Translations under genes and position numbers: made by a program
Part shown: positions 26,566 to 47,438 of the stretch, in pieces
Layout of the letters: the number at the start of each line of letters is the position of its first letter
Position numbering within the stretch: the first letter of the stretch is position 1
Notes under the pieces: model-generated
Told to the model about the DNA's origin: nothing
Seen by the model: the letters and a program-made list of their open reading frames with translations, nothing else
Database searches by the model: none
DNA from: Nanobdellota archaeon
GTDB lineage: Archaea > Nanobdellota > Nanobdellia > Pacearchaeales > GW2011-AR1
DNA: 64,000 bases
NCBI GenBank assembly: GCA_038045765.1
Contig: JBBSXN010000005.1
Span: 226,144 to 290,143, forward strand
Direction of reading: 5' to 3'

Positions 26566-27605
26566 TGAAGAAAAATGAATTAGAGATTGAGGCTTTTGGA
26601 AGAGTTCAAGGAGTAGGTTTTAGACTTACTGTTGAGGCCCATGCTAAGAAAAAAGGACTAACTGGTTTTATTTTCAATAGAGATATAGGGAGTGTAATTA
26701 TATTAGTTCAGGGTGAAAAGAAAAAAATAGAAGATTTTCTTGTTTGGTTGCAGACAAATCCTGGTTTTTCTAGAATCGATAGTCTGCAGTATGGTTGGAG
26801 GGCGAATATTAAAGTTTATGATGATTTCAGAATAATTAGAAAGGGTAATTTAATATCTGAACAAGCTAGAAATTTTTATAATTTGGGAAAATACATTTTA
26901 GGAAAGAAGATAGTAAAAGTTCCTAAACATGTATCTATAATTCCTGATGGGAATAGAAGATGGGCTAAAAGACAAGGAATGCATTCTGAATTTGGACATT
27001 ATAAAGCAATAAATGTTCAACATATGTTAGATATATTTCATGAAGCGCAGAATATTGGAATTAAGTACTTAAGTTTTTGGGGATTTTCAACAGAAAATTG
27101 GAAGAGAAATAAAATTGAAGTTAAAATGCTCTTCAAATTGTTTTTTGAATTTGCTGATTTGTTTAGAAATAGTGATTTAGCTGATAAAGTAAGATTCAAA
27201 CATATTGGAAGGAAAGACAGGTTGCCTAGTAAACTAATTTTAGAGTTAAATAAATTGGAAGAAGAAACACAAAATAATTCAGAACTGACTTTTCTTCTTT
27301 GTCTTGATTATGGTGGAAGAGATGAGATTGTTAGAGCGGTAAATAAGATGATTAAAGATGGAAAGAAAAAGATTAGTGAAAATGATTTGAATAACTATCT
27401 TGATACTGCTGGAGTTCCTGATGTAGATTTGATAATAAGAACAAGTGGAGAGTGTAGAACTTCAGGATTTATGCCTTTTCAAGCAGTTTATGCTGAATTG
27501 TGCTTTATTCAAAATGATTTTCCTGATTTTACTGCTGATGATTTAAGAAAAGCTGTTGAGTGGTATAATGGAAGAGATAGAAGATTTGGTGGGAATAGCA
27601 AGTAG
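26565..27605 (+). CDS. uppS: acylphosphatase / cis-prenyltransferase (undecaprenyl/dolichyl diphosphate synthase) fusion protein
   Basis: The N-terminal ~90 aa form an acylphosphatase fold (EIEAFGRVQGVGFR...GFIFN). The remainder is a UPPS-type cis-IPTase (HVSIIPDGNRRWAKRQG ... RTSGECRTSGFMPFQ). Confidence 0.75.
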   Translation: MKKNELEIEAFGRVQGVGFRLTVEAHAKKKGLTGFIFNRDIGSVIILVQGEKKKIEDFLVWLQTNPGFSRIDSLQYGWRANIKVYDDFRIIRKGNLISEQARNFYNLGKYILGKKIVKVPKHVSIIPDGNRRWAKRQGMHSEFGHYKAINVQHMLDIFHEAQNIGIKYLSFWGFSTENWKRNKIEVKMLFKLFFEFADLFRNSDLADKVRFKHIGRKDRLPSKLILELNKLEEETQNNSELTFLLCLDYGGRDEIVRAVNKMIKDGKKKISENDLNNYLDTAGVPDVDLIIRTSGECRTSGFMPFQAVYAELCFIQNDFPDFTADDLRKAVEWYNGRDRRFGGNSK

Positions 27606-32300: not shown

Positions 32301-32653
32301 CCGGAACTGGTGGAGAAGGAACAACTACTGGAACTGGTGGTGGAACTACAACTACAACTACAACTGGAACTGGCGGATCAGGTACGACTGAAGCAACTAC
32401 TGGAGGAGTTGTTTGTGCAGATGGATGTTCATTAGAAAGTGGACAGTGCGTTCCTCTTGGATATAGAATTGGTGGAAAATATTGTGATGTGAGCAAGAGT
32501 TTGGTAACTTATAAAGCCGATTCAGCTGATTGTGAAAATAATTTTGAATGTGGAAGTAATGTTTGCGTCTCAAATAAATGTATTGAGGCAGGATTTTTGC
32601 AGAAGATTAGTGATTGGTTTAGTAACCTATTTGCAACATCTTCAGCATCTTAA
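29348..32653 (+). CDS. giant secreted protein (1101 aa), paralogue 2: LamG domain, two TSP1-like 4-Cys modules, MBG/Ig-like domains, Thr/Gly linker, conserved C-terminal Cys module
   Basis: Shared leader MQKRLVNYLFFSFVAVLLLVSVVSAVWWNPSTWF. LamG_3 region (LVAYWKFDE...LRVYNTALTSTQINQVY). Modules ACTSFTYSEWSVCSTLGQQAKTILTRTPDGCTGGSPEALTRSC and TCTSFTYSDWSTCTSAGSQTKTILTSNPSGCSGGTPEALTRSC. YDG/MBG-like segment (LTAIYDGTPKSISVTTNPPGISTIVTYNG...AGSYAVTVTAS). C-terminal CENNFECGSNVCVSNKC. Confidence 0.7.
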   Translation: MQKRLVNYLFFSFVAVLLLVSVVSAVWWNPSTWFNGRGITGNPVASATDYTSNLVAYWKFDEASYSGGSGQVKDYLGFSNGTPVSSPTIVPGLKGNAVRFTGAGGQKILISTTPTKFNLGSFTLSAWVKTSDAGTGRRRIFSQQNSDYYGIALNGNNLECFSSLDFGVTQYNSPSTAVLNNNQWHHVSCVRNTGINKFLLYIDGVNVKNSSITGSSSYAMGAGGISISQYLGGNSEIFTGLIDELRVYNTALTSTQINQVYDFAKPASSAQACTSFTYSEWSVCSTLGQQAKTILTRTPDGCTGGSPEALTRSCTYYDPNRIYVNYTVSSMISPYYLTNAVVNLSYAGASYPCNFISKPTSSFPNYGIYRCNVPRLGQTGIYYTLSSSAPGYAQDIASLGNSFNAGEYTASIILNPLPPTCTSFTYSDWSTCTSAGSQTKTILTSNPSGCSGGTPEALTRSCHPDGGIATASLSGLTAIYDGTPKSISVTTNPPGISTIVTYNGVTTPPTAAGSYAVTVTASPPTLATAPIFTMNTMAALVINKADQTIVFPTISPQVTAVPFGLSATSSSGLPVSFNIQADLVSGSGTIINNVLTATEAGVVTVRASQAGNNNYNPAPFIDKTISVSSPFKTVQIGEWANVGDSIQLAGATLAKVQSISSSSSASFFDNDNVVFHQTTSGGPITGKTFNAISKGIASTHNGPDSNHLPYFEGGINGKFYNVEYRGVTGSTANSPQARLVAIVCTGGDWIGTVSPCTPSGNKTIEWTKSPAYCDSTLAGSVNHPASEVVTCTYVPPVSTPIANSTFLYYIKNQSGASIPGVQYNLKNSTGGVFDDNCIFDVSSGLMCVNLFAGNYLLNVSASNYFSQVLSLSLTQNYRGPNYPNNIITLSGASTGTTTSTIGANVAGCSDTDADAANLGGVDYNERGTFTAPAESSWTVAQRTDYCVSAMRLAEYSCDPAPAGFDYNGVEVDCPGGCSEGRCIGSGTGGEGTTTGTGGGTTTTTTTGTGGSGTTEATTGGVVCADGCSLESGQCVPLGYRIGGKYCDVSKSLVTYKADSADCENNFECGSNVCVSNKCIEAGFLQKISDWFSNLFATSSAS

Positions 32654-32695
32654 CTTATGGAAAATATTTATATATCTGCAAGAAATGTTTCTTTA

Positions 32696-35194
32696 ATGCA
32701 AAAGAGATTTCTTAATTATTTATTTTTTAGTTTCGTTGCTGTTTTACTTTTAGTTTCAGTTGTTTCTGCAGTTTGGTGGAATCCAAATACTTGGTTTGAA
32801 GGAAGAGGAATAACTGGGAATGTTGTATCTCCTAGTCAAATTTTTGTTAAAGTAGCTTATTTAGGGAAGATAGATAATAAGGCTGCTCCTTATTCTTTTT
32901 CTCCTGGTGCTGGGAATGATTTTAGTTTTTCTTTACAATTTGATAGTCCTTCCGGTCTTAAAATACAACGAATGAGTTTTACTCGCACTAGTAGTGGCGA
33001 GTATTGGAGAACTTACGGATCTAATGACCCTATTAATGTTTACCCAATTGTAATTTTTGATTCTAATAATCATAGAATAAACAATGCTATGGTTGAGCCA
33101 GCTTTAATTGTCCCTTCTGGCTTGCAAAATTATACTTTTTATTTTGAACCAGGAAGTCCGAATTTTGTAGGAGGAACTTTAACAATTCATTTACAGAATG
33201 AGGTTACCCCAATAACTATTAATGTTCCGGCAGGAGTTGGACAGATAATTACATATGGTTCATATGATTCACATGTATGTACTTCATTTACTTATAGTGC
33301 TTGGACTCCTGCAATATGTTCACTTGGAAGTCAGCAGACTAGAACTGTAACTTCAAGAAGTCCAGCAGGATGTACGACTGGAGTAAGTCCAGTATTAACT
33401 CAAGGTTGTAATGTTCCCACATGTACTTCATTTACATATTCAGATTGGGGTGTATGTCAATCTAATAATCAACAAGCCAGAACTGTGACTGCAAGCAGTC
33501 CGGCTGGATGCACTGGTGGAAGTCCATTATTATATAGGGGTTGCACTCCTTTTGTTTTACCTGCTAATGATAATTTTGTTAATGCTATTTTGATAAATAA
33601 TTATGCTTCAAGTACTGGTACTGTTAATGTAAATTTGAATGGTGCGGGAACTGAGAGTGGTGAAAATAACTTAGCAGGAAACACTGTTTGGTATAGATTT
33701 AATGCTCCTGGGGCAGGTAATTTAAATATTAATTATAATTCTCCTACTGCTGGTGGAATGACTTTAGATTCTAATTTGAGATTATATTCTGGAAGTAGCT
33801 TGTCTTCTCTTATTTTATTGAGAGAGAATTCAATGGTTAATCATGGTCAGACGGTTAGTTTAAATGTTGCTCAACCTGGTAATTATTATTTACAGTTTGG
33901 AAGAAGTGCAGGTAATTTTGGAGCAGGTACTGCTACATTCACTTATGCTTTTCAATCTCTGGCTTCTGGAGCATGTATAGATACTGATGTTAATGCTACT
34001 TATCCTGATGGATTGAATTATTATCTTACTGGTTCTGCTAGCGGTTCTAGTGGGATAGGTTCTAGTGATTATTGCGGTGCAGGATATTATTCAAATACAG
34101 TCTATGAATCTTATTGTAGAGCTTCTGATAATTCAGTCACTACCGCTTATTATAATTGTCCTACTGGAACTGTTTGTACCAATGGTGCTTGTTCAGTTGG
34201 AAGTGCAGTAGTTTCACCTACTCCAGTAGCTTGTACATCATTTAATGTTGGTTCATATAATGCTTGTAGTGGTGGTCAGCAGACTAGAAGTGTTACTGGA
34301 GTTCCTGCAGGGTGTGTTGGAGGAGTAACGCCTCCGGCTAGTTCTCAAGCTTGTTCAGAGCCTAGTATTCCAACTTGTACTGATGCAGATTGGACTTATG
34401 TTGTTGTTGCTCCATCTACTTGTTCTGCTGGTTATTCAAAAGAAAGAAGATGGAGTAAAACTGGAAATTGTGAAGGAGGAATAACTCATGATACCTCTGA
34501 ATATTTACCTTGCAGTTATCCTTATGGTCCTCTTCCTTGTTCTTCATATACATATGGTGAGTGGACTCCTGCTAATTGTGCTGTTGGAAGTCAACAAACT
34601 AGAACAGCATTAGGGTCTTATGGAGGAGGTTTAGGAGGAGTTTATTATGCACAGTGCATTGGAGGAAATCCTGCAGCCATTTCAAGAATTTGTCCTGAAA
34701 ATACTCAGACTGTTACTGATACTAGTTGTTCTTATGGTGATTCTCCTGTTTGTTCAAATGATGAGATTACATATTCAAATTCATGCAATGCTGTAGCTGC
34801 TGGTGCGACTGTCTCTTGTCAGGGTGAGTGTCCTTGTCCTGCTGGAAATCCTGCTCCTAGCCCTGGTGTCGTTCCTGTAGCTGTTCCTGTTCCTACAGTT
34901 ATAACTCCTCCGACCGGTACTGGAATTGCTCCAGTAGTTTCTCCGACAGGTACTTGTTCTAGTGGATGTGAGTTAGATAATAATTGTGTAGATTTTGGAC
35001 ATAGATCGAGTGCAAAGTATTGTGCTTTGTCAGGCATGGTTGACTTTAAGGATATTGGTGTAAGTTGCGATAATAGTTTTGAATGTTCAACTAATTCATG
35101 TATTTCTGGAAAATGTTCCGAAGCGAATATAATTCAGAATATTGTTAAATGGTTTAAAGATAATTGTCCTTCATTTATTTGTTCTGTTAAATAA
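32696..35194 (+). CDS. giant secreted protein (~832 aa from this start), paralogue 3: conserved N-terminal domain, four TSP1-like 4-Cys modules, conserved C-terminal Cys module
   Basis: The ORF track begins at 32657. Homology to the paralogues (MQKRFLNYLFFSFVAVLLLVSVVSAVWWNPNTWF) and a TATA box at 32666-32675 place the start at ATG 32696. Modules VCTSFTYSAWTPAICSLGSQQTRTVT, TCTSFTYSDWGVCQSNNQQARTVT and others. C-terminal CDNSFECSTNSCISGKC. Confidence 0.65.
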   Translation: MQKRFLNYLFFSFVAVLLLVSVVSAVWWNPNTWFEGRGITGNVVSPSQIFVKVAYLGKIDNKAAPYSFSPGAGNDFSFSLQFDSPSGLKIQRMSFTRTSSGEYWRTYGSNDPINVYPIVIFDSNNHRINNAMVEPALIVPSGLQNYTFYFEPGSPNFVGGTLTIHLQNEVTPITINVPAGVGQIITYGSYDSHVCTSFTYSAWTPAICSLGSQQTRTVTSRSPAGCTTGVSPVLTQGCNVPTCTSFTYSDWGVCQSNNQQARTVTASSPAGCTGGSPLLYRGCTPFVLPANDNFVNAILINNYASSTGTVNVNLNGAGTESGENNLAGNTVWYRFNAPGAGNLNINYNSPTAGGMTLDSNLRLYSGSSLSSLILLRENSMVNHGQTVSLNVAQPGNYYLQFGRSAGNFGAGTATFTYAFQSLASGACIDTDVNATYPDGLNYYLTGSASGSSGIGSSDYCGAGYYSNTVYESYCRASDNSVTTAYYNCPTGTVCTNGACSVGSAVVSPTPVACTSFNVGSYNACSGGQQTRSVTGVPAGCVGGVTPPASSQACSEPSIPTCTDADWTYVVVAPSTCSAGYSKERRWSKTGNCEGGITHDTSEYLPCSYPYGPLPCSSYTYGEWTPANCAVGSQQTRTALGSYGGGLGGVYYAQCIGGNPAAISRICPENTQTVTDTSCSYGDSPVCSNDEITYSNSCNAVAAGATVSCQGECPCPAGNPAPSPGVVPVAVPVPTVITPPTGTGIAPVVSPTGTCSSGCELDNNCVDFGHRSSAKYCALSGMVDFKDIGVSCDNSFECSTNSCISGKCSEANIIQNIVKWFKDNCPSFICSVK

Positions 35195-36272: not shown

Positions 36273-36950
36273 ATGCATTTTTCCTTAGTAGTACCAGTTC
36301 ATAATGAAGAAGAAAATATTAAATATTTGTATAAACAGATAAATGATAGTTTGAAAGAATTTTCTTATGAAGTTATAGTTGTGAATGATGGTTCTAATGA
36401 TGGAACTTTATTAGAATTGAATAAAATTAAAGATAAAAAGTGGAAAGTTTTAGATTTGGAGCATAAAGGCAAAGATTATGCTGTTTATGCTGGAATTCAA
36501 AAAGCTAAATCTCAAAATATTGTATTAATGGATGGTGATTTGCAAATTGATGTTAAAGATGTTGTTAATTTGTGGATGGTCTTTAAAAAAAACCAATTGG
36601 ATTGTGTTGTTGGCTGGCGTTTTGATAGGAAAGATGGTTTTGTGAAGAAAGTTTCTTCTTTTGTTGGGAATAGTTTTAATAATTTATTTTTTGGATTAAA
36701 AATAAATGATGCTAATTGTCCTTTGAAGATAATTAATAGAAAATTACTTGTAAATGTTAAATTCTTTAATCATTTTCATAGGTTTATATGTGCTTTAATT
36801 TCTTTGCAAAATGGCAAGATTGAAGAGATTAAAATTAAACATTTACCTAGAAAGTATGGAAAATCGCATTATGGCGTACATAATAGGATTTTTGGTAATT
36901 TGATTAGTTTGTTTAAAGTCAGATTTGGAAGAAGAGAGATATTTGGCTAA
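36273..36950 (+). CDS. GT2 polyprenyl-phosphate sugar synthase-like glycosyltransferase (DPM1/GtrB/AglD-like)
   Basis: LVVPVHNEEENI..., EVIVVNDGSNDGT and LMDGDLQ form a GT-A DxD region. The protein is 225 aa, soluble type. Confidence 0.65.
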   Translation: MHFSLVVPVHNEEENIKYLYKQINDSLKEFSYEVIVVNDGSNDGTLLELNKIKDKKWKVLDLEHKGKDYAVYAGIQKAKSQNIVLMDGDLQIDVKDVVNLWMVFKKNQLDCVVGWRFDRKDGFVKKVSSFVGNSFNNLFFGLKINDANCPLKIINRKLLVNVKFFNHFHRFICALISLQNGKIEEIKIKHLPRKYGKSHYGVHNRIFGNLISLFKVRFGRREIFG

Positions 36951-36960
36951 ATATTTATAT
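36951..36960 (+). promoter_or_regulatory. TATA box (atatttatat) inside the conserved element ggctaaatatttata upstream of surface-protein family member A
   Basis: It lies 22 nt upstream of ATG 36983. The same element ggctaaatatttataaactcgttt occurs at 38061-38084 upstream of member B. Confidence 0.4.
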
Positions 36961-36982
36961 ACTCGTTTTATCTTGATTGGTG

Positions 36983-37999
36983 ATGGCTGTTAAAAAGAGG
37001 GTCGGAGATAATTTAGGATTATATTTATTGTTAGGTGCTTTGGTTCTTGTTGTTTTATTTTATCAACCAGGAGCATTATTGAGTCCAGATTGTGCTGAAG
37101 GCCAAGTTTTGAATGATGCAGGTGTTTGTGAAGATGAATGGATGTCTGGTGATGCTTTTTTATATGATGAAGATGGAAATCTAGTTATCGATATACCTGA
37201 AGAATTTGAGAGTTTTACAGATCCTAGGGACCCAGATGCTTTTAACTTTGGTTCTGAATCTAAAGATTTTGATTTTCCTGAATTTCCCGTAGAATGGGAT
37301 TACCAAGAGGATTTTTATAATGCTTGTGTTGCTGGTGATGTTCCCGATATGGAAGAGAGATGTGGAGATATTGCCCCAATTGAGATAATTCCTCAATGCA
37401 ATCCTTCTCCAGCAGTTCCAGTTGCTAAAATTTATTCTAAAGAAATAACTTTAAATGGAGGGAATGCTTTTCCAGATTCCCGTAAACGAGCAACTATTGC
37501 AGCCGCTGTTGCTGACTTGCAAGGAGAGGCTAATAGAGATAGAACTAATATGATAACTGATTTTGATTGCGAGGGTAGTCCTGCTGAATCTGATATTACT
37601 TGTGAAGTTTTTGATGGTAGAATAAACTATAGAGTTGGTTTAGAGACATCCACACCTCAGAGTAATACTTGTACAAATCCTGGACCATCGACTGCAAGTA
37701 ATCCTATGCATTACGAAACTACTTTTTCTTCAAGTATTGCAGATGATGGTGCCTGTCAGGTAGCGTTGGAAGGACTTGGAAATAATTGGGTAGAGACAGG
37801 GCCTCCTAGTACGTTTAGCTGTCCTAGCGGTTGTGATCCAGCAGGTTCATATGCTTTAGATGTTACGCAAAATGCTGATGGTTGTACTGGTTATGCTACT
37901 AATGATGTTTACTGCGGTCCAAGAGGGGGAAGATTTAGCGGTAAAGTTAAAATAGATCTCTTTGCTTTCTTTACACATGATTGCCGAAGAACTGAGTAA
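36983..37999 (+). CDS. signal-anchored Cys-containing surface protein, mosaic family member A
   Basis: The ORF track uses TTG at 36977. ATG 36983 gives MAVKKRVGDNLGLYLLLGALVLVVLF, parallel to member D. LLSPDCAEGQ and SGKVKIDLFAFFTHDC are shared with member B. Confidence 0.6.
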   Translation: MAVKKRVGDNLGLYLLLGALVLVVLFYQPGALLSPDCAEGQVLNDAGVCEDEWMSGDAFLYDEDGNLVIDIPEEFESFTDPRDPDAFNFGSESKDFDFPEFPVEWDYQEDFYNACVAGDVPDMEERCGDIAPIEIIPQCNPSPAVPVAKIYSKEITLNGGNAFPDSRKRATIAAAVADLQGEANRDRTNMITDFDCEGSPAESDITCEVFDGRINYRVGLETSTPQSNTCTNPGPSTASNPMHYETTFSSSIADDGACQVALEGLGNNWVETGPPSTFSCPSGCDPAGSYALDVTQNADGCTGYATNDVYCGPRGGRFSGKVKIDLFAFFTHDCRRTE

Positions 38000-38097
38000 A
38001 ATTAATTTTCATCTTTCTTTTGCAAATCAATGTCTTAGAACGGCTTAATTTTATTTTTTGGCTAAATATTTATAAACTCGTTTCAGTTTAGAATGTT

Positions 38098-39879
38098 ATG
38101 AGTTTTAAAAGGAGGGCATTGCATAAAAATGCTTGGAAGACTTGGTCTTTATATTTATTAGCAGGATTATTTATTGTTGCGTTTCTCTTTTCACAACAAG
38201 GTGTTTTTTTAAGTCCTGATTGCGAGGATAATGATGATAGTTGTGTTCATGAGGGAGATGAAGATTATATTTCTTGGGAAATTCCTGGAGATGCTTATGA
38301 AGGTGTTCAAGACATAGAAGAGAGTATGAATGATGATCCTGAGACTGAAGATGTTATAGAGGGATTTAAGTTTGGTGGTGATTCTGAAGCACTAGATAAA
38401 GAAGCAGCCGATGCTGCTAAAGAAGCTCAAGAAGATGTTAAAGAATGTGTGGCTGATGCTGATGGAGATCCTGCTAAGCAAAATGAGTGTGGTGAAATTG
38501 CAGCTGCTGCTGGCGGATCTGCTAGTTGTAGTCCTAGTAGTAATCCTTATCCTAAGGTTATAAGAGATTTAGTTACAGTTACTTTTACAGGAGGAATTAC
38601 TGGAGCGCCTTCTGATGAAGCGGTTAAGTCTACTCTTTTACAGAAAGCAGGAGAGCTTAGACAGGAGAATGTAAATGAACAAGAAGCGATAGCTAATGGT
38701 ATGAAATGTAAGGCGTCTACTAAATTTACTAGATGTGAAAAAGAAAATGGAAGAGTTTCTTATTCTATGAAAGTTGAACCACTTAAGAAAAGCGGTGAAT
38801 GTAAAATTCCTAGCGGTTCTGGTGATCAATCTCCAGCTAAGACGGATAAAACTGATTCTTTATCGGCATCAGGTAGCAATGAAGCAGATTGTATAAATAA
38901 ACTTGGAGATAAAGCTAAGGAGTGGGTTCAAGGTCTTAGTTATACTTGTAAGACTGGAAAAATAGGAGCTAATTTCTTTGGTAATGGTGGGACTAATTAT
39001 GGTGAGTGTAAACCTATATATGCTACCTTTGATCTCGATGGAGTTTTTGTTTTATCTCCTGGAAGTTTGGAAGCAGGAACATGTACTGGAAAAGCATCTT
39101 TTACTATTTCTTGTGGTGATGGTCCACTTGTAGAAGGAATTTCAGGAAAAGTTAGAATTTATCTGAAAGGTACATTCACTCATTCTTGTAAACCAATTTA
39201 TGACAAAGAGGCTACTATTGATGGTAGTTCTGGTAGTGGATCTGGTTCAGGATCTGGAAGTGGTGGCAGTAGCGGAGGAGGTTCGAGTGGAGGCACATCT
39301 GGTGGGGGTGGTTCTGCTCCTGAAACTAGTCCTGGAATAAAATCTCCTAGTAGTGATTCTTCAGATAGTTCAGACGCAAATAGTAATTCTGCTAATCCAG
39401 GTAGTGATAGTTCTCTAGCTTCTGGTGATGTTAGTCCATTAACAGATAATTCTAATAGTGCAAATCAAGATAGTAGTAATGATAATTCTAATAGTGCAAA
39501 TCAAGATAGTAGTAATGATAATTCAAACAGTTTAAGTGAGAGTAATGATGCAAATTCTGGTGAATTATCTCCTTTCTTTTCTGCAATTAAAAATGCACTC
39601 CAAGGCCTTAGCGGAGATAGTAAAGATGAAGGTGAGTTGGTGAGCGATAATAGCCAGACCAATTCCCAGAATAGCGATACTTCAAAGTCAAATAGTGCTA
39701 TTAATTTCAATAGCCTTACTAGTGTTAGTAATTCTGATGAAGAGATATTAAGTCCAACGTTAGCTTCAATTAACTATATACTTGAAATTATCAAGGGTGA
39801 AGATACGGAAGTTATAGGTATCTTTCAACCAGTTGAAAAGGCACTTGAAGATTTGCAAGAGTTTTTTGAGGGAAGTTAG
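38098..39879 (+). CDS. signal-anchored surface protein, mosaic family member B (A-like core, G/S-rich and Ser/Asn/Asp-rich repeat tail, conserved C-terminal 45 aa)
   Basis: MSFKRRALHKNAWKTWSLY leader is identical to member C. FLSPDCEDND...SGKVRIYLKGTFTHSC is the A-like core. The tail carries SGSGSGSGSG and DNSNSANQDSSN x2.5. The C-terminus SPTLASINYILEIIKGEDTEVIGIFQPVEKALEDLQEFF is shared with member D. Confidence 0.65.
   Translation: MSFKRRALHKNAWKTWSLYLLAGLFIVAFLFSQQGVFLSPDCEDNDDSCVHEGDEDYISWEIPGDAYEGVQDIEESMNDDPETEDVIEGFKFGGDSEALDKEAADAAKEAQEDVKECVADADGDPAKQNECGEIAAAAGGSASCSPSSNPYPKVIRDLVTVTFTGGITGAPSDEAVKSTLLQKAGELRQENVNEQEAIANGMKCKASTKFTRCEKENGRVSYSMKVEPLKKSGECKIPSGSGDQSPAKTDKTDSLSASGSNEADCINKLGDKAKEWVQGLSYTCKTGKIGANFFGNGGTNYGECKPIYATFDLDGVFVLSPGSLEAGTCTGKASFTISCGDGPLVEGISGKVRIYLKGTFTHSCKPIYDKEATIDGSSGSGSGSGSGSGGSSGGGSSGGTSGGGGSAPETSPGIKSPSSDSSDSSDANSNSANPGSDSSLASGDVSPLTDNSNSANQDSSNDNSNSANQDSSNDNSNSLSESNDANSGELSPFFSAIKNALQGLSGDSKDEGELVSDNSQTNSQNSDTSKSNSAINFNSLTSVSNSDEEILSPTLASINYILEIIKGEDTEVIGIFQPVEKALEDLQEFFEGS
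39445..39530 (+). repeat. 36-nt tandem repeat (gataattctaatagtgcaaatcaagatagtagtaat x ~2.4) encoding DNSNSANQDSSN
   Basis: Seen directly. Copies at 39445-39480 and 39481-39516, then a partial third copy. Confidence 0.7.
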
Positions 39880-41303
39880 TTATCATCTTTTTTATAGAAT
39901 ATAACATAAATATTAGTTTCTTGTATTTCATCTATTTTTATATATTGATCATTTTCTTTTTCAAATATATACTGATTCATTAAAGCGTATGAATTGTATC
40001 TGTCAAAAAAAACTATTGAAGAATCATTAAAATTCTGCTCCTTGATGAGAGATAGATAGAATAATTTATCTTTTACGCATGGAGCGTAAAAACTTAGACT
40101 AGCTTCAGGAATGTCTGTGCTAGTTAGAAATGTTGAATTTGGCCATTTATCGCAGATTTCTTTTAACATAGGTTTCCAATTTTCTCTATCTATTTTTAGA
40201 CTATTTTCATAATATGTTGATAAGTTTGAAGTTATGAACAGAGAAATTATTAATAGAATTAAGATATGAGGTATATATTTATTCCAGTCTCTAGTTTTAT
40301 TGATTGAATAAGAAAGAATAATTATTAATGGGAAGATGGCAAAAGAAAGATATCTGGTTACAAGTATTGGTGTGTAGAAATAATCTATCAGGGATAATAG
40401 TATTATGGGTGTGATAAGGTAGAACAGTGCACTGTTCTTTTCTAGACTTTCTTGTTTTTCTTTAATTAAATGATATATTCCATAAATTACTAGGATAGTT
40501 ATCGCTATTGTTAGAATATTGATTTCTTCAATTTTATAGCTGTTTATGAATGATAGAAATATGCTTCCCAAATTGATTAGGTAGTTTTCTGTCTTACCTA
40601 TCCACAGAATACCTTTTTTGTGAGATATGTTTGTAAAAGCAATACTTACCCATGGAAGATATGATAAAATTATGATGAATAGAGATTTTAGATAGTCTTT
40701 ATTTTTATTATAAATAAACCAGATTATTATTTGGGTTAAAAGTAGTAGAAAACCGAGATAGAGAGTATAAATCAAGGCTATTGTGCTCAATATATATTTC
40801 CATTTATTATTTGATTTTTGGTCTTTTAGGAATATTAAGAAGTAATACCAACTTGCTAGTCCTAAAAGCCAGACTAATGTGTACATCTTTGCTTCTTGGC
40901 TATAATTGATTAGGTACGGCCAGAATGCTCCTAGCAAAGCTGCTAGATATGCAGTTTGTTTATTATTTGTAATTAATTTTGTTAATTTGTATAAATAAAT
41001 TAGTAAAATAGCTCCAAATAGTGCAGAAGGAAATCTAAGAGACCACTCCGATATTCCTATTAGAGATGTCCAAGCTTTTAGAATTAAGTAATACAGTGGA
41101 GGGAAAGGTGAATCTGCTAAATTTGTAAGTGTGTCTAACCAAGAACCAGATATTCTTCCAATAGTCATAAGTTCATCATGCCAGAGACTTGGTGCAGAGA
41201 TTTTGTATATTCTAAGGAGAAAAGCTAATAGGATAATTACTGATAGTAGGATATATTCTTTATTGGTTTTTATGTAATTTAATAATTTATTTTCTTTTTC
41301 CAT
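39876..41303 (-). CDS. GT-C-fold protein mannosyltransferase/ArnT-like glycosyltransferase (PMT_2, GT39/GT83-like), copy 1
   Basis: 475 aa, ~11 TM. The first-loop motif SLWHDELMT is the DE motif. The first ~45 codons are ~85-90% identical at nt level to the 45969 copy. Confidence 0.6.
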   Translation of the reverse strand: MEKENKLLNYIKTNKEYILLSVIILLAFLLRIYKISAPSLWHDELMTIGRISGSWLDTLTNLADSPFPPLYYLILKAWTSLIGISEWSLRFPSALFGAILLIYLYKLTKLITNNKQTAYLAALLGAFWPYLINYSQEAKMYTLVWLLGLASWYYFLIFLKDQKSNNKWKYILSTIALIYTLYLGFLLLLTQIIIWFIYNKNKDYLKSLFIIILSYLPWVSIAFTNISHKKGILWIGKTENYLINLGSIFLSFINSYKIEEINILTIAITILVIYGIYHLIKEKQESLEKNSALFYLITPIILLSLIDYFYTPILVTRYLSFAIFPLIIILSYSINKTRDWNKYIPHILILLIISLFITSNLSTYYENSLKIDRENWKPMLKEICDKWPNSTFLTSTDIPEASLSFYAPCVKDKLFYLSLIKEQNFNDSSIVFFDRYNSYALMNQYIFEKENDQYIKIDEIQETNIYVIFYKKDDN

Positions 41304-41359
41304 CTTAATATCGATACAAATAGCAGAAGATATATAAATAATGTGGCTTATTTTTAATT

Positions 41360-43492
41360 ATGAAGAGGTCTAATAATATTACAGTAAATTCTTCTTGGAA
41401 GAATTGGTTAATTGTTGTGTTGATTGTTGCAATCGTAGTATCTTCTTACTTTGTTTTTTATCAGGATAATATTTATTCTAAGTCTACCACTGGAGCTGTT
41501 CTTTGGCCATGGGAAATATTTGGAGACCCTTGTTATAGTAATCCTGGAGATTTAGATTCAGACGGCGATGGTATACCAGACAATGATGACGACGATGACG
41601 ATAATGATGGAATACTTGATGTTGATGAACCAACAACTGATTCTGATGGAGACGGAACTGAAGATGAAGTAGATACTGATGATGATAATGATGGAACTGA
41701 TGATTCACAAGACAACGATGATGATGGAGATGGAATAGGTGATAACGAAGATACAAGTGACGGAGATAATAATGTAAATGAAAATAGTGGTGATGACGGA
41801 GTTGATGATAATCCTAACGATGATGATACTTATACTATCATTGATGACGAAGTTGATAATTCTGTAAATAATGAGGATACAGATGATGATGGAGTAGATG
41901 ATGTTGTCGATACAGACGATGATAACGATGGAGTACCTGATGGTGAAGAACCTGATAATAGTGATTTAGATGGAGACGGAGAAACAGATGCTATAGATCC
42001 AGATGATGATAATGATGGTGTGGACGATAGCTTTGATAATGACGACGACAATGATGGAATTACTGATGAACAAGATTTAGATAATGATGGAGATGGAGTA
42101 GAAGACAGCTCTGAGGAAGTTACCAATGAGGATGAGGATACGGATGAAGATGGAGTAGATGATTCTGAAGACGTTGATGATGATAATGATGGCGTGAGTG
42201 ATGATGAAGACACAGATGATGATAATGACGGAGTAGATGATGAAGAAGTTGATAATTCAGATACAACTAGTGATTGTGAAGATGGACAATCACTAAATGA
42301 AGATGGTGAATGTGTTAGCGTTATTGATGAAGTATTGGAAGACATATGTAATGATATATTATCAGATTCTTTTTGTGATGGTGGTCTAGAGGAGATTATT
42401 GTAGGTGATGAAGAAGTTGATAATTGTCCAGATGGAACATCTGTTAATGAAGATGGTTATTGTGATGATGATAGCCTTTTAGATGATGTTCTTGATTGTG
42501 TTATCTTAGATGATTGTGATGATGAAATTATTGATGATTGTCCAGATGGAACATCTGTTAATGAAAATGGTGAATGTGAAGATGAGATTACTGATGATGG
42601 TGATTTAGATAACGATGGAATTGAAGATGAAGAAGATGGTGACGATGACAATGATGGAGTATCTGACGAAGAAGATCCCGATGATAATAATGATGGCGTG
42701 GGTGATGAAGAAGCTAATGATGATGAAACGGAAGATGAAGATGAAGAAGAGACGGATGATGAGGAACCAAGTGATACTTGTAAGGATATAGATAACGATG
42801 GCGACGGAGTAAACTCATGTGACGATTGTGACGATAATGATAGTACAAATAAGATAGTAACTGCAGATGCTGATGAAGATGGAATATCTACTTGTGATTT
42901 AGATTGTGATGATAATAGTGAAGATGTGCAAATTACTAAGGCGGATGCCGATTCAGATGGAAAGACTACTTGTGATGGTGATTGTGATGATAATAATAAA
43001 GATGTAAAACCAGGTGCTAGTGAAATGTGTCAAGATAATCTAGATAATAATTGCAATGAATTAGTTGATTGTGCAGATAGTGCTTGCAATGGTTATATAG
43101 TTACGGAAGAAGGATTTGCTATACCTGGTTCTATGTTTGCCCCTCCTAAGAGAGAAGTAGGTATGTGCTGTTCTGGAACACAGGTAGATCATCGATCCGA
43201 TAATAATAATTGCGGATTTTGTGGGAATGTGTGTGCTTCCGATAGATCTTGTAAATTTATATCTATTGCTCCAGGTTGTGTTATAGATAAATGTAAAGCT
43301 CCTACTGGATCAGGTTATCTTACTCAAGCAGATGCTGAGAAAGCTGGTGAAGTTGCTAAATCTAATTTTATCAAAGTATGTACTCTTGCAAAAAATGTTG
43401 ATCTTAGTTATTTTTCTGAGCCTATCTTAGATAATCAAGGTAAAGAAACTGGGCAATCATTCAAAGGTTTCTCTGTAGGCTTTTCTTTTTAG
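41360..43492 (+). CDS. hyper-acidic secreted protein with Asp-rich, thrombospondin-type-3-like (putatively Ca-binding) repeats and C-terminal Cys-rich MopE-like metal-binding motifs
   Basis: N-terminal signal anchor. ~25 repeats of D.DDDNDG..D (e.g. DTDDDNDGTDDSQDNDDDGDGIGDNED). C-terminal motifs CDDCDDNDS, CDLDCDDNSED, CDGDCDDNNKDVKPGASEMCQDNLDNNCNELVDCAD. Confidence 0.6.
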   Translation: MKRSNNITVNSSWKNWLIVVLIVAIVVSSYFVFYQDNIYSKSTTGAVLWPWEIFGDPCYSNPGDLDSDGDGIPDNDDDDDDNDGILDVDEPTTDSDGDGTEDEVDTDDDNDGTDDSQDNDDDGDGIGDNEDTSDGDNNVNENSGDDGVDDNPNDDDTYTIIDDEVDNSVNNEDTDDDGVDDVVDTDDDNDGVPDGEEPDNSDLDGDGETDAIDPDDDNDGVDDSFDNDDDNDGITDEQDLDNDGDGVEDSSEEVTNEDEDTDEDGVDDSEDVDDDNDGVSDDEDTDDDNDGVDDEEVDNSDTTSDCEDGQSLNEDGECVSVIDEVLEDICNDILSDSFCDGGLEEIIVGDEEVDNCPDGTSVNEDGYCDDDSLLDDVLDCVILDDCDDEIIDDCPDGTSVNENGECEDEITDDGDLDNDGIEDEEDGDDDNDGVSDEEDPDDNNDGVGDEEANDDETEDEDEEETDDEEPSDTCKDIDNDGDGVNSCDDCDDNDSTNKIVTADADEDGISTCDLDCDDNSEDVQITKADADSDGKTTCDGDCDDNNKDVKPGASEMCQDNLDNNCNELVDCADSACNGYIVTEEGFAIPGSMFAPPKREVGMCCSGTQVDHRSDNNNCGFCGNVCASDRSCKFISIAPGCVIDKCKAPTGSGYLTQADAEKAGEVAKSNFIKVCTLAKNVDLSYFSEPILDNQGKETGQSFKGFSVGFSF

Positions 43493-43496
43493 ATAA

Positions 43497-43763
43497 TTAT
43501 TTATTAGGAGAGTATTTGAAATAATATGTTTTATTCCCGTAGAACATAGGTCTTAATGAGCTTGTTTCTCTCATTAGTCTTTCTTGTTCTTTTACGAATA
43601 TATCATCTTCTCTCTTTAGTATTTGCTCTCTTTTTACTGGGTCTAAGACAAGAGGTATTCCAAGCAGGCGAGCGTTTGCACATCCTGTTGCGTATAAAGC
43701 ACCTGCTAAAGCAATTGGGGCTAGAATTCTATTTAGTTTGCTTCTTTCCATGTATTTTATCAT
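43497..43763 (-). CDS. hypothetical small protein (88 aa)
   Basis: It lies in an intergenic-size gap. LAPIALAGALYATGCANARLL is a hydrophobic segment. The support is weak. Confidence 0.25.
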   Translation of the reverse strand: MIKYMERSKLNRILAPIALAGALYATGCANARLLGIPLVLDPVKREQILKREDDIFVKEQERLMRETSSLRPMFYGNKTYYFKYSPNK

Positions 43764-43861
43764 AAATATGGATATTTAAATGTTTGTATTTGTTACTTCT
43801 CTATAGTGATATAAATGAATACTTAATGAATATTTATATAGCTTGATAGTTTTATATTAAT

Positions 43862-44512
43862 ATGAGTTTTAAAAGGAGGGCTTTGCATAAAAATGCTTGG
43901 AAGACTTGGTCTTTGTATACTTTAGTAGGTTTGTTGGCTTTCACTCTTTTTTATACTTCTTTTGGGCAAAATCAAGTATTTTTCTCTCCAACTGTGCAAC
44001 AGTTTGAAGATAGAAGTTTAGCTCTTCATACGGAATTTGATAATCTTCAAATACAATTTAATGAAAAGAAAGCAGATTATGTCGCATGTATTACTGATTT
44101 ATCTGATAAGATGTCTAATTTGAACACTAATTTAGATACTTTAGATGAAGAAGAAATTACAGAAAGAAGAGCAGAAATTGCTGCTAAGAATGAGGAGTGT
44201 CAGGCAATTTATGAGGATATAGCTAATAATATTGCTTCATCTGTTTTACTTGCTCCATGCGATAGGTTACCAGCTCTTGCTAATGAATTGTATTCTGAAA
44301 TTCAAGAACGATTTAATGAAGAAGACGCATTAGTAGAAAGTGAAGATGAGAATGCTGATCCTCAGACTCTTGAACAAATTGTAGATTTACGTGACAATGT
44401 TGCTTTGTTAGAGCTTAATATGAATGAATTTTGTCAAACTTTAAGGGGTTTTCCAGATCCTTGTACTGCTCTTGGAAATACAGAATATAATGGAAGATCT
44501 CAAAATCCTTAA
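43862..44512 (+). CDS. signal-anchored surface protein, mosaic family member C (short, coiled-coil-like core)
   Basis: Leader MSFKRRALHKNAWKTWSLY, with upstream DNA identical to member B. The core has YVACITDLSD, ECQAIYEDIANN and DPCTALGNTEY, paralogous to member D (YQACITNLIG, ERCQDLYNEANA, DPCTALSSQGE). Confidence 0.6.
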   Translation: MSFKRRALHKNAWKTWSLYTLVGLLAFTLFYTSFGQNQVFFSPTVQQFEDRSLALHTEFDNLQIQFNEKKADYVACITDLSDKMSNLNTNLDTLDEEEITERRAEIAAKNEECQAIYEDIANNIASSVLLAPCDRLPALANELYSEIQERFNEEDALVESEDENADPQTLEQIVDLRDNVALLELNMNEFCQTLRGFPDPCTALGNTEYNGRSQNP

Positions 44513-45969
44513 TTAATTCTTTTTAATATATTTGCTTTTAATGATCCTTCTTGGATTGTTTTGTTTAGATAATACCTGTCTTTTGTATTGTTTTTGAGAT
44601 CTCTTAATTGTAAAGTTGCTTGAGGTGCTAGACGAGAGAGGAAAATTAGTTTTTCATAAGAATAGTTTGCAGTTAGTTTATCTGAAGGTATGTCTGTTAT
44701 GAAAAGAGCAGGGATTATTACTTTTGGAAGGCAAGCCCCATAGTAATGCAGTATTTTTTCAGGGCTTGAAATTCCATTGATTATAAGCGTTTTATTATTT
44801 ATTTCGTTACATGTTTCATTGAAGAAGGAGCGCCAGTCTTCTCCTTCTATTTTTAACTGGTTTTGATAGTATGGTGATAAGTGTATAGTGAAAATGGATA
44901 TTGTCAAGATGATTAAAATTATCATTGAGAGATACTTACTCCATTTATTTGTGTAGTTTATTGATAAAGCTATTAAAATTATTAATGGAATGTGGATAAA
45001 GCCTATGTATCTTGTTACTAAGATAGGGGTTGATAAAAAGTCTATTAGTATTATGAGAAGTAATGGTAGGAAAGTCAGTAATAATATATATGTTTTTTTC
45101 CAAGAATTAATTTTATCTTTATTTTCTTTTATTAGAAATAGTGTTGTTATGCCTGATAAGATTAGTATTGTGTAAATAGTTAATTCTAGAGAAGTATTTG
45201 TTCTGAAAATATCTGAAAATATCTCTTTTAAGGCTTGGAGATAGTTATTAGTTTGTAATACCCATTCAATTCCTGACTTGTGAGATATGTTTTGAGAAGC
45301 TATTCTTATCCAGGGTATGTATAATAAAATTATTGATAAAAGAACAATAATCATTTCTTTTATTGGTTTTCTTTTTGAATAGAGTAAGAAGCAGGTTAAT
45401 TGAGTTATGAGGATGAGAAAACCGAAATATAGTGTGTATATCATTAATGCGGTAAATAGCGTATATAAGATAATATTTCTTTTATCTGGATTTTCTATAA
45501 AATTAAGAAAATGGTAGAATGAAGCTATAGATAAAAACCAGACCATTGAATACATTTTTGCTTCTTGAGCATAGTTAATTGCATATGGGAAAATGGCTAA
45601 TATAAATGAAGAGATTAATGCTGTTTGTTTGTTAAATAGCTTTTTTGTTAACAAGTATAAATAAGGTATAGTGAGTGTGGAAAATATTGCTGAGGGGAAT
45701 CTTAATGCAAATTCTGAGAAACCAAATATATTTGTCCAGAATTTCGTTAATATATAATATAGTGGTGGGAATGGAGAGATTAATAGTGTGGTGAGAGTGT
45801 CTGAGAATGAGCCTTGTAATCTATAGAAAGTCATTAATTCATCATGCCAGAGACTTGGAGATGAAATTTTATAGATTCTTAGTATAAAAGCTAATAGGAT
45901 AATTACTGATAGTATGATATATTCTTTATTGTTTTTTATATAGTTTAATAGTTTATTTTCTTTTTCCAT
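44509..45969 (-). CDS. GT-C-fold protein mannosyltransferase/ArnT-like glycosyltransferase, copy 2
   Basis: 486 aa. MEKENKLLNYIKNNKEYIILSVIILLAFILRIYKISSPSLWHDELMT matches copy 1. Confidence 0.6.
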   Translation of the reverse strand: MEKENKLLNYIKNNKEYIILSVIILLAFILRIYKISSPSLWHDELMTFYRLQGSFSDTLTTLLISPFPPLYYILTKFWTNIFGFSEFALRFPSAIFSTLTIPYLYLLTKKLFNKQTALISSFILAIFPYAINYAQEAKMYSMVWFLSIASFYHFLNFIENPDKRNIILYTLFTALMIYTLYFGFLILITQLTCFLLYSKRKPIKEMIIVLLSIILLYIPWIRIASQNISHKSGIEWVLQTNNYLQALKEIFSDIFRTNTSLELTIYTILILSGITTLFLIKENKDKINSWKKTYILLLTFLPLLLIILIDFLSTPILVTRYIGFIHIPLIILIALSINYTNKWSKYLSMIILIILTISIFTIHLSPYYQNQLKIEGEDWRSFFNETCNEINNKTLIINGISSPEKILHYYGACLPKVIIPALFITDIPSDKLTANYSYEKLIFLSRLAPQATLQLRDLKNNTKDRYYLNKTIQEGSLKANILKRIN

Positions 45970-46301: not shown

Positions 46302-47438
46302 ATGAGTGTTAAAAAGAGTTTTGGTAAGTATTGGGCTTTGTATGTTTTAATTGCTGTTTTGGTGGTGTTTTTATTTTTTAAGTTGAATGATGGTTTTATA
46401 ACTGGTAATGCCTCATTGAGTTCAGATAGTTTAAGTGACATTATTACTTCTAGAACTACTTTACAATCTAGTTTTGATAGTCTTAAGACTCAATATGATG
46501 ATAAGAAAGGCAATTATCAGGCTTGTATTACTAATTTAATAGGATTATATGCAGATACTGATGCTAGAGAGGATCCTGCTCATCAACAGGCAATATCTAC
46601 CGAGAATGAACGTTGTCAGGATTTATACAATGAGGCAAATGCATTATCTTCTAATTGTAACCAACTTGAAGGACAATATACTCATCTTCTAGAACGAACA
46701 TCTGAATATTGGTCTAATCTAAATAATTATTTTAATCAATTAAGTCAGAGCGATATTAATTTTGAAAGTGCTAAAAATGAAAAGGATACAGCTTATCAAT
46801 TTATTAATCAATTAGAGAGAGATCATAATTCGATATTATATTATTGTCAGAAGATTTTATCTTTAAGAGATCCTTGTACTGCACTTAGTTCGCAAGGAGA
46901 AGTTGAGACTGATACAGATTATGATAGACTAAATGATATATCTAATAATGTTAATCCTGATACTGAAGCTCAAGTTATAATTGATAGTTCTAATCCTGAT
47001 TTTGTTTCAGATAGTAATCCTTCTCAAAGTTCAGGTCAATTACCTGCACAAAATAATTTAGATGATTCTCAAGAATTAGATGTTGTTGATAATGGCGATG
47101 ATAGCCAGAATGTTGTTGAAAAGTTATTTAGTAATTTATTTAATTCTAATGATGACGTGAGTGATGATGATGCAAATAGTGCGAGTGATTCACTTAATTC
47201 TGATAATACTCAGACTAATTCTCAAGATAGTGATACTTCAAATTCAAATAATAATTTTAATTTCAATAGCTTCATTAGCTCCAGCAGTTCTAATGAAATC
47301 ATACCAAGTCCAACTTTAGCTTCAATTAATGATGTGCTTGAGATTATAAAGGGTGATGACTCAGAAGTTATAGATATCTTTCAACCAATTGAAAAAGCAC
47401 TTGGAGATTTACAGAATTTCTTTGATAATCTTAGCTAG
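46302..47438 (+). CDS. signal-anchored surface protein, mosaic family member D (C-like core, Ser/Asn/Asp-rich tail, conserved C-terminal 45 aa)
   Basis: MSVKKSFGKYWALYVLIAVLVVF. A TATA box lies at 46271-46280. The C-terminus SPTLASINDVLEIIKGDDSEVIDIFQPIEKALGDLQNFF matches member B. Confidence 0.6.
   Translation: MSVKKSFGKYWALYVLIAVLVVFLFFKLNDGFITGNASLSSDSLSDIITSRTTLQSSFDSLKTQYDDKKGNYQACITNLIGLYADTDAREDPAHQQAISTENERCQDLYNEANALSSNCNQLEGQYTHLLERTSEYWSNLNNYFNQLSQSDINFESAKNEKDTAYQFINQLERDHNSILYYCQKILSLRDPCTALSSQGEVETDTDYDRLNDISNNVNPDTEAQVIIDSSNPDFVSDSNPSQSSGQLPAQNNLDDSQELDVVDNGDDSQNVVEKLFSNLFNSNDDVSDDDANSASDSLNSDNTQTNSQDSDTSNSNNNFNFNSFISSSSSNEIIPSPTLASINDVLEIIKGDDSEVIDIFQPIEKALGDLQNFFDNLS

Follow-up and report, generated by a model that had tools for sequence, protein, structure and literature searches.

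Calcium loops of the Dx[DN]xDG type bind Ca2+ in a nearly identical manner in at least 12 protein families, with a strong bias towards surface and secreted proteins, and these motifs have been described as rare in archaea (PMC3123361). In the thrombospondins TSP-1 and TSP-2 and in COMP, the unit DxDxDGxxDxxD forms an extracellular "wire" of irregular conformation, in which the repeats are stapled by disulfides, N-type and C-type motifs alternate, and the wire wraps a C-terminal lectin-like domain. Carlson et al. are said to have described, in 2005, about two Ca2+ ions per motif in TSP-2. Arrays of thrombospondin type-3 (TSP3) repeats are also found in bacterial proteins of the OmpA family, the type IX secretion system (T9SS) and gliding motility (PF18884; 5wtl), which are anchored through OmpA, β-barrel or T9SS parts in a diderm envelope. 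It has been proposed that the Cys-rich repeat regions of TraA act as presentation stalks and the TSP3 repeats of TraB as Ca-binding linkers (PMC12045341). Here, a gene for a hyper-acidic surface protein of 710 residues is described, located at 41360..43492 (stop codon included) on the + strand of a 64-kb stretch of DNA from a Nanobdellota archaeon (contig JBBSXN010000005.1; the window, meaning the whole of the 64,000 nucleotides analysed); judged by sequence comparison, its array of 17 acidic loops belongs with the Cys-free bacterial arrays.

Compared with the TSP-1/TSP-2/COMP wire, the archaeal array has the same unit and, as modelled here, a similarly irregular conformation, and both would be extracellular; however, the archaeal units have no Cys in or between them, they follow a uniform 13-residue period, and the protein has no lectin-like domain. 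The bacterial TSP3 arrays are its closest sequence relatives. Bacterial protein P0104 has the same Cys-free 13-residue DDDNDG unit together with MopE-like ICNGVDDD.DG units, and the Bacteroidota proteins P0063 ("MopE-related protein") and P0087 combine TSP3 with the MopE-type motif PF11617. Unlike these bacterial proteins, the archaeal one would be held by an N-terminal membrane anchor, and its Asp content is more extreme. The 1-3-5-7-9-12 spacing, the Gly at position 6, the hydrophobic position 7 and the extracellular bias are shared with EF-hand, dockerin, Excalibur and calcium-blade loops, but the archaeal loops lack the flanking helices of EF-hand and dockerin, the CE after the loop of Excalibur and the propeller context, and no Pfam match to any of these four families was found in the acidic protein.

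The acidic calcium-loop array

The open reading frame (ORF) of the acidic protein, taken from the ORF list of the window, is a real gene. It begins with ATG, a start that is called because the N-terminus of the syntenic orthologue P0009 aligns with it, and a second family member, P0162, was found; coordinates, strand, length and translation agree with the original prediction, which was made from the sequence alone. The ORF occupies the gap between its neighbour genes exactly, and the 56-nucleotide intergenic stretch on its 5′ side is common to it and a divergent PMT_2 gene. A TATA-like element, ATATATAAAT (41331..41340, + strand), lies 20–29 nucleotides 5′ of the ATG and is a weak call in an AT-rich genome; scans for sigma-70 promoters and terminators gave background levels, which is uninformative since the models are bacterial and the host is archaeal. 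On the opposite strand, the ORF at 41830..42345 (−) has 87 Ser among 172 residues and that at 41484..41756 (−) is His-rich. Spurious Ser-rich antisense ORFs had been foreseen, and runs of GAT and GAC codons read in shifted reverse frames do yield them; gene callers may mis-annotate both.

Asp makes up 26.6% of the whole protein, 32.4% of residues 1–450 and 39.1% of residues 60–330, with a net charge of about −229 and an isoelectric point of about 4.05, so that the share of about 40% once given for the first 450 residues is too high and holds for residues 60–330. The pattern [DN]x[DN]xDG is matched 25 times when overlaps are counted, and these matches reduce to 20 non-overlapping cores, namely 17 acidic 13-residue units and the first halves of three Cys-rich units (residues 478, 503 and 529); the roughly 25 units of the original prediction are reached solely with overlapping matches. 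The literal hexamer DDDNDG occurs eight times. The 17 acidic units stand in two blocks, with 14 in residues 66–298 (41555..42253, + strand; defined by unit register, a 39-nucleotide period, shuffles and profile) and three in residues 415–453 (42602..42718, + strand; defined by unit register). The first block is split by an acidic linker without repeats (residues ~133–172), a Glu/Asp-rich linker (residues 454–473) lies 3′ of the second, and neither linker contains an ordered motif. As had been predicted for the acidic repeats, there is no Cys, the count between residues 59 and 305 being zero.

The consensus of the acidic unit is D-x-D-x-D-G-[VI]-x-D-x-x-[DE]-x, in which Asp at positions 1, 5 and 9 and Gly at position 6 are present in 17/17 units, Asp at position 3 in 16/17, Asp or Glu at position 12 in 15/17, and Val or Ile at position 7 in 14/17; the six Ca-coordinating positions (1, 3, 5, 7, 9 and 12) of the EF-hand/TSP3 loop are kept. 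The autocorrelation of Gly has its maximum at lag 13, and 15 full DxDxDGxxDxx[DE] units are found in the real sequence against 0.51 ± 0.71 (maximum 5) in 5000 shuffles that preserve composition. As DNA, the 39-nucleotide units are just 61–74% identical in pairwise comparison, from which it follows that the array is old or held by selection; the recent expansion that had been put forward for a codon-level check finds no support and was dismissed. The protein has three N-x-S/T sequons, none of them inside the array, so N-glycosylation of the array is unlikely.

Four independent lines indicate that the likeness to TSP3 repeats exceeds composition. When the array was compared by sequence with the whole PDB, the matches were TSP-2 (2rhp and 1yo8; E = 0.046–0.071), OmpA (5wtl; E = 0.29) and COMP (E = 7.7), all sub-significant yet exclusively TSP3-repeat proteins, and DDDNDGV.D..D strings are common to the array and TSP-2 in these alignments. 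The top prokaryotic matches to the array have 36–46% identity across about 230–330 alignment columns; in this alignment (A5), 10 of the 14 segments are positive for Pfam TSP_3 (PF02412; best 4e-21) and seven for TSP3_bac (PF18884), each with a gathering score of 25 bits, while the query is negative, and its putative TSP3 membership rests on a transitive link through the bacterial arrays. The likeness to a test profile built solely from 12 bacterial array segments depends on residue order: with composition correction the real array scores 97.3 bits against −64.3 ± 6.2 for 500 shuffles (z = 26), and without it 266 against 110 ± 13 (z = 12). Finally, an AlphaFold2 (AF2) model of residues 56–300, based on a multiple sequence alignment (MSA) that includes the bacterial arrays, has no regular secondary structure, with a predicted local distance difference test (pLDDT) score of 70–80 in the repeat blocks and 33–36 in the non-repeat linker; Foldseek comparison of this model with the PDB returned TSP-2 (E = 1.4e-5, probability 0.93), COMP, TSP-1 (1ux6) and 5wtl, and also listed one chain of the BAM complex that is non-significant (E = 5.2). 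The array thus very probably functions in the manner of a calcium wire of the TSP3 type, whose loops would bind Ca2+. The assignment to TSP type-3 repeats in the original prediction is upheld by the loop grammar, the bacterial-array profile and the PDB and Foldseek comparisons, but not by the Pfam cut-off for PF02412 (14.8 against 25 bits).

Anchor, cysteine modules and the scaffold family

The hydrophobic segment WKNWLIVVLIVAIVVSSYFVFY (residues ~13–34; 41396..41461, + strand) is the sole window of transmembrane-like hydropathy in the protein and is conserved in P0009 and P0162; K2, R3 and K14 stand near its start, and it would be either a signal anchor or a signal peptide that stays uncleaved. 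Because there is this single N-terminal hydrophobic segment, the protein is probably exported or anchored, in line with the secreted protein that had been proposed. An archaeosortase-type sorting signal was ruled out, since no PGF-like motif with a transmembrane segment after it is present at the C-terminus, and a pilin-type signal was likewise ruled out, since no [KR]-[GA] class III site lies ahead of the hydrophobic stretch.

A middle Cys module (residues 305–406; 42272..42577, + strand), delimited by sequence, by the DNA repeat families D5 and D7 and by alignment A1, consists of three hairpin-like C-x-DG-x-S-x-NE[DN]G-x-C units between acidic amphipathic stretches; P0009 has one such unit, and no Pfam match above threshold was obtained for the module. 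Members of D5 and D7 are 77–82% identical; with this same DNA identity, the CPDGTSVNE.G hairpins, like the second and third MopE-type units, were duplicated somewhat more recently than the units of the array.

The C-terminal Cys motifs named in the original prediction, CDDCDD, CDLDCDD and CDGDCDD, are located at residues 487, 512 and 538. The first two belong to half MopE-type units (residues 474–528; 42779..42943, + strand; recognised by sequence and by repeat family D6, with 82% DNA identity) that read DxDxDG-x3-C-x(1,2)-DCDD and lack the second half, PGAxExC...DNxC, and the third to a complete motif PF11617 (residues ~529–576; 42944..43087, + strand). PF11617 (Cu-binding_MopE, gathering score 27 bits) scored 37.4 and 32.1 bits on isolated segments, covering profile positions 1–29/30 and residues ~541–570, and was not reported when the whole protein was scanned with Pfam; the profile check suggested earlier is thereby passed on the isolated Cys-rich segment, and of the MopE-like repeats one is complete and the remaining two are half-units. 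The best PDB sequence match of the Cys-rich part is MopE (2vov, residues 5–43; E = 0.0025). An exhaustive search with residues 470–710 returned 5922 proteins at E ≤ 0.001, nearly all of them multi-repeat MopE-type proteins matching query positions 5–110, so that residues 474–580 have thousands of multi-repeat relatives, myxobacterial and others; typical members have 8–40 tandem units, whereas the archaeal protein has one full and two half units. It has been reported that the copper ligands of MopE* are two His and a Trp-derived kynurenine (PMC3423442), and that the copper site and a structural Ca2+ site lie in a β-core shared with CorA (PMC3912023). Both the β-core and the His/Trp ligands are missing from the archaeal protein, which has no His and no Trp in residues 474–580 and a single His overall; as far as the sequence tells, the PF11617 motif here is not the copper site of MopE, and "metal-binding" is a database label for a putative property.

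It was also observed that the bias and composition correction of HMMER masked both the PF11617 motif (37 bits) and the TSP3-type signal in the whole-protein scan. Hyper-acidic proteins are best scanned in segments; otherwise such proteins stay unannotated.

Further towards the C-terminus, residues 603–645 (43166..43294, + strand) hold a single copy of a CC...D-x-x-[ST]D-N-N-N-C-G-x-C-G-N-x-C unit, which reads CC...SDNNNCGFCGNVC...C...C..C. The signature [ST]D-x-x-N-C-G-x-C-G-x-x-C is common to it and to Stig1/MXAN_6577-like proteins, and high-GC bacteria have secreted proteins (L017, L024 and L037) in which it is repeated in long tandem arrays, in contrast to the one copy here. The likeness is sub-threshold: Stig1 (PF04885) reached 21.8 bits against a cut-off of 24.1, and NF041328 (MXAN_6577-like), the sole NCBIfam match of the whole protein, 17.7 bits against 100. 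The family-specific tail that follows (residues 646–710, ending in ...SF; 43295..43489, + strand) is conserved solely in P0009 and P0162; it is predicted to form a helix and a β-hairpin, with AF2 pLDDT of 60–70 over the last ~55 residues, and it had no Pfam and no PDB match.

P0009 (516 residues; BLASTP 1e-24) has the anchor, about 8–9 acidic units, one hairpin, MopE-type units and the C-terminal module, and its locus has the same order as the window, namely deoxyhypusine synthase, GT2, ..., acidic gene, a convergent gene of ~87 residues and PMT_2. P0162 (253 residues, locus L010) combines the anchor with one MopE unit and the C-terminal module (48% identity) and has no acidic array; in the exhaustive search it matched query positions 59–239 at 8.6e-45 and was the sole match reaching the C-terminus. 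Across the window protein, P0009 and P0162 (alignments A1–A3), 11/11 Cys of the C-terminal module and the DNNNCG positions are invariant, and the window protein has all the hallmarks of the family: a WK..L-hydrophobic anchor at the N-terminus, MopE unit(s), the pattern CC...DNNNCGxCGNxC...C.D.C and a tail that closes with SF. From these sequences, the conserved scaffold thus appears to consist of anchor, MopE unit(s) and C-terminal module, and in it the array (0, ~8–9 and 17 units in P0162, P0009 and the window protein, respectively) and the extra hairpins form a variable insert. Beyond these members little was found: the full-length homology search gave mostly compositional matches, led by mosquito Asp-rich MFS proteins, and generic bacterial TSP3 proteins, with P0009 as the only true homologue; a word-indexed search with the C-terminal 136 residues found nothing; a scan of GTDB species representatives gave no orthologue, with partial Cys-motif matches in Myxococcota, Deltaproteobacteria and Acidobacteriota; and a metagenome scan added solely loci of the P0009 and P0162 types. 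The exact acidic protein, looked up in a collection of 15 billion proteins, and the exact 216-residue neighbour were absent from the look-ups.

Proposed calcium-dependent stalk and rival explanations

We lean, with moderate confidence, towards a membrane-anchored extracellular protein in which 17 loops bind Ca2+ to give a stiff, irregular wire, that is, an adjustable stalk bearing a Cys-knot head. The one N-terminal hydrophobic segment would hold the protein in the cytoplasmic membrane and the remainder would lie outside the cell. Without Ca2+ the array would be a disordered polyanion; with Ca2+ bound, the loops would fold into an irregular, stiff wire like that of thrombospondin type-3 repeats and serve as a calcium-dependent stalk or spacer that holds out the distal head. 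The head would be made of small, probably disulfide-knotted Cys modules, namely the three CxDG...NEDGxC hairpins, the MopE-type units and the one Stig1-like unit, and with the family-specific tail it is the likely interaction surface, since this is the conserved part; its role may be in adhesion or recognition. The stalk would be an evolutionarily adjustable insert, as the different unit numbers suggest, and the gene lies in an island that varies between strains and encodes secreted proteins and GT-C enzymes, as would be expected if diversifying pressure acted on a surface or contact protein.

Several points weigh against this stalk. PF02412 had no match on the whole protein or on the 245- and 246-residue versions of the array in the Pfam scan, its best score being that of a 52-residue piece (E = 0.024), and TSP3_bac reached 13.0 bits against 25 on a 52-residue piece (E = 0.094). 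The mean pLDDT of the AF2 array model is a moderate 64, the Foldseek TM-scores are low (0.10–0.18), and the Foldseek score has an amino-acid term, so that sequence and compositional likeness contribute to it. Similarly, AF2 modelling of the C-terminal 243 residues from a three-sequence MSA gave a mean pLDDT of 37 and a head without defined structure; the family has three known members, which makes its conservation statistics thin; and the uncleaved state of the N-terminal segment is a prediction. It has been reported that the Dx[DN]xDG motif readily arises by convergence in acidic regions (PMC3123361), and as between common descent with TSP3 and convergence, the sequences establish a likeness. 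Ca2+ binding by the bacterial OmpA TSP3 array (5wtl) is reported to need an intra-repeat disulfide (Dai et al. 2017, according to the account given in PMC12045341), which the Cys-free archaeal units do not have. In addition, Ca2+ binding by the array is, like the disulfides, the outside topology and the stalk function, something that we infer.

The missing disulfide and the failure of the Pfam TSP3 models on the query would also suit a disordered acidic spacer or entropic brush without specific metal binding, in which DxDxDG is a by-product of GAT slippage and the TSP3 likeness is convergent; slippage is known to predispose acidic regions to the motif (Rigden et al., PMC3123361), and compositional matches to mosquito Asp-rich proteins head the full-length search. 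This explanation is unlikely, as the invariant G6 and D9 and the hydrophobic position 7 are not explained by Asp-codon slippage, the motif is preserved while the DNA units have diverged, the independent bacterial-array profile separates the real array (97 bits) from shuffles (−64 bits), and the AF2 pLDDT of 70–80 in the repeat blocks stands against 33 in the low-complexity linker. Slightly less unlikely is an array that acts by charge, as a high-capacity, low-affinity cation sink (calsequestrin-like or "condensed-charge") that holds Ca2+, Mg2+ or trace metals at the surface, where they might, for instance, stabilise the envelope or S-layer or be captured as nutrients, instead of forming a stalk; it overlaps the stalk model, since each needs Ca2+ binding. 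DPANN cells have reduced genomes and rely on external supply, which counts for such a sink, as do the 39% Asp of residues 60–330 and the motif-free linkers 133–172 and 454–473 with their very low pLDDT. It has been reported, too, that acidic disordered proteins bind many Ca2+ ions with affinities of ~100 µM through Excalibur-like or condensed-charge motifs (PMC8391695). However, the six ligand positions, Gly6 and the hydrophobic position 7 are kept in the 17 units despite 61–74% DNA identity, and because the motif was kept while the DNA units diverged, selection would have acted on loop geometry and not on charge alone; P0162, which has no array, shows in turn that buffering would not be the core function of the family.

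With the Cys motifs (CDDCDD..., PF11617) taken as the working part, the protein would be a MopE-type binder of copper or another transition metal that chelates metal and has a role in metal acquisition, and the PF11617 cut-off passed, the best PDB match to MopE 2vov and a cupredoxin gene a few kb downstream in the related genomes L002 and L040 all point that way. We consider this very improbable: the match is confined to MopE residues 5–43 with the β-core absent, the His and Trp of a copper site are lacking from residues 474–580, the whole protein has a single His, and for Cys residues that are even in number and regularly spaced, disulfide pairing within an extracellular knot is the simpler reading. 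A non-functional ORF held open by chance in GAT-rich low-complexity DNA is barely credible; the low-complexity sequence, the long antisense ORFs and the absence of the exact protein from 15 billion others would agree with it, but the anchor and the 11-Cys C-terminal module are kept in two diverged homologues, one of them syntenic, a Pfam motif scores above threshold, and the gap between the neighbours is filled exactly, with a TATA-like element upstream.

Envelope island and strain variation

The archaeal host is apparent from the other genes of the window, which include deoxyhypusine synthase, GatD with its N-terminal domain, an archaeal-type ProRS and TrmB, at a GC content of ~31%; the nearest named relatives of the ProRS, at 75–77% identity, are from Candidatus Pacearchaeota and Nanoarchaeota, and the host is accordingly a DPANN archaeon resembling Pacearchaeota. 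When the window proteins were compared by tblastn with the two related genomes L002 and L040, deoxyhypusine synthase, TrmB, the 159-residue gene, GatB, the permease, ProRS and the epimerase were 85–95% identical, and GT2 and PMT_2 (44509–45969) 75–79%, while the acidic protein is ~30% identical to P0009 of L002 over residues 420–710 and is absent from L040. In L040, whose ProRS is 90% identical to that of the window, the slot that separates GT2/336 aa from PMT_2 in the window is closed, leaving ~1 kb between GT2 and PMT_2; when L040 800–3700 is set against window 36950–45969, the 593-residue gene, PMT_2 copy a, the acidic gene and the 88-residue gene have no tblastn match, and the 216-residue query finds just a weak 28% match in L040, to a 380-residue gene past PMT_2. 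These comparisons indicate a presence/absence polymorphism of ~7 kb between the window strain and L040, and place the acidic gene in a strain-variable envelope island.

The position between two GT-C cassettes given in the original prediction is borne out by the PMT_2 genes at 39876–41303 and 44509–45969, and a third PMT_2 (GT-C) gene of the window lies at 9851–11389. The related genomes have a single PMT_2, to which the product of 39876–41303 is 47–48% identical and that of 44509–45969 is 78–79% identical, so the former is probably an island-specific extra copy. The wider window also encodes a flippase, GT2, a cis-prenyltransferase and several large secreted Laminin_G_3 proteins, and all proteins encoded between GT2 and TrmB have a single N-terminal hydrophobic segment. 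The 593-residue (38098–39879) and 216-residue (43862–44512) proteins have the identical N-terminus MSFKRRALHKNAWKTWSLY, and the 593-residue and 378-residue (46302–47438) proteins have similar C-termini, IKG[ED]D[TS]EVI.IFQP[VI]EKAL.DLQ.FF, which suggests that secreted proteins encoded in the island have exchanged modules. The mature part of a 340-residue secreted protein (36977–37999) opens with SPDCAEGQVLNDAGVCEDE; this is a C-x-x-GQ-x-LN-D-x-G-x-C hairpin that is common to it and to residues 306–318 of the acidic protein and belongs to no Pfam family. Convergent with the acidic gene, 4 nucleotides 3′ of it, is an 88-residue gene (43497–43763, −) with a lipobox-like N-terminus, ILAPIALAGALYATGC, which is kept beside P0009 at the same position (L001 11554–11817, −) with 48–50% identity; its product may be a lipoprotein that partners the acidic protein.

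Elsewhere in the window, three Cys-rich secreted proteins of 845–1101 residues (15075–18362, 29348–32653 and 32657–35194) have a near-identical signal peptide, QKR..NYLFFSFVAVLLLVSVVSAVW(Y/W)NP, and appear to be a paralogous surface-protein family; the one at 29348 has Laminin_G_3 and MBG_3 domains. An acylphosphatase is fused to a cis-prenyltransferase (undecaprenyl/dolichyl diphosphate synthase) at 26565–27605, an unusual pairing that is conserved at L001 2100–3140.

To our knowledge, the surface proteins of uncultivated DPANN archaea, Pacearchaeota among them, are almost entirely uncharacterised, although the lifestyle of these archaea is thought to rely on contact with other cells. Cys-free TSP3-type arrays and the pairing of TSP3 with PF11617 are already known from bacterial surface proteins, and the acidic protein is a new, mostly ordinary member of a known repeat-protein type; its novelty is modest and lies in the DPANN host, the putative N-terminal membrane anchor, the small family-specific C-terminal module and an array insert that is gained and lost. 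The gene is a clear example of a calcium-loop array in an archaeon; within a strain-variable envelope island, it shows this array as an adjustable insert between the conserved parts of a scaffold made of anchor and head. Its chief interest is its sharp variation between close strains, with ~30% identity or presence/absence among strains whose housekeeping genes are 90% identical. A further proposal, which we regard as quite unlikely, is a DPANN-specific calcium-switchable tether, in which the number of loops (0, ~8–9 or 17) would set the reach of a strain-specific Cys-knot head from the episymbiont membrane towards the host, and the turnover of the gene would reflect diversification driven by host range or phages. 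If true, such a tether would provide a molecular handle on the attachment of Pacearchaeota to their partners.

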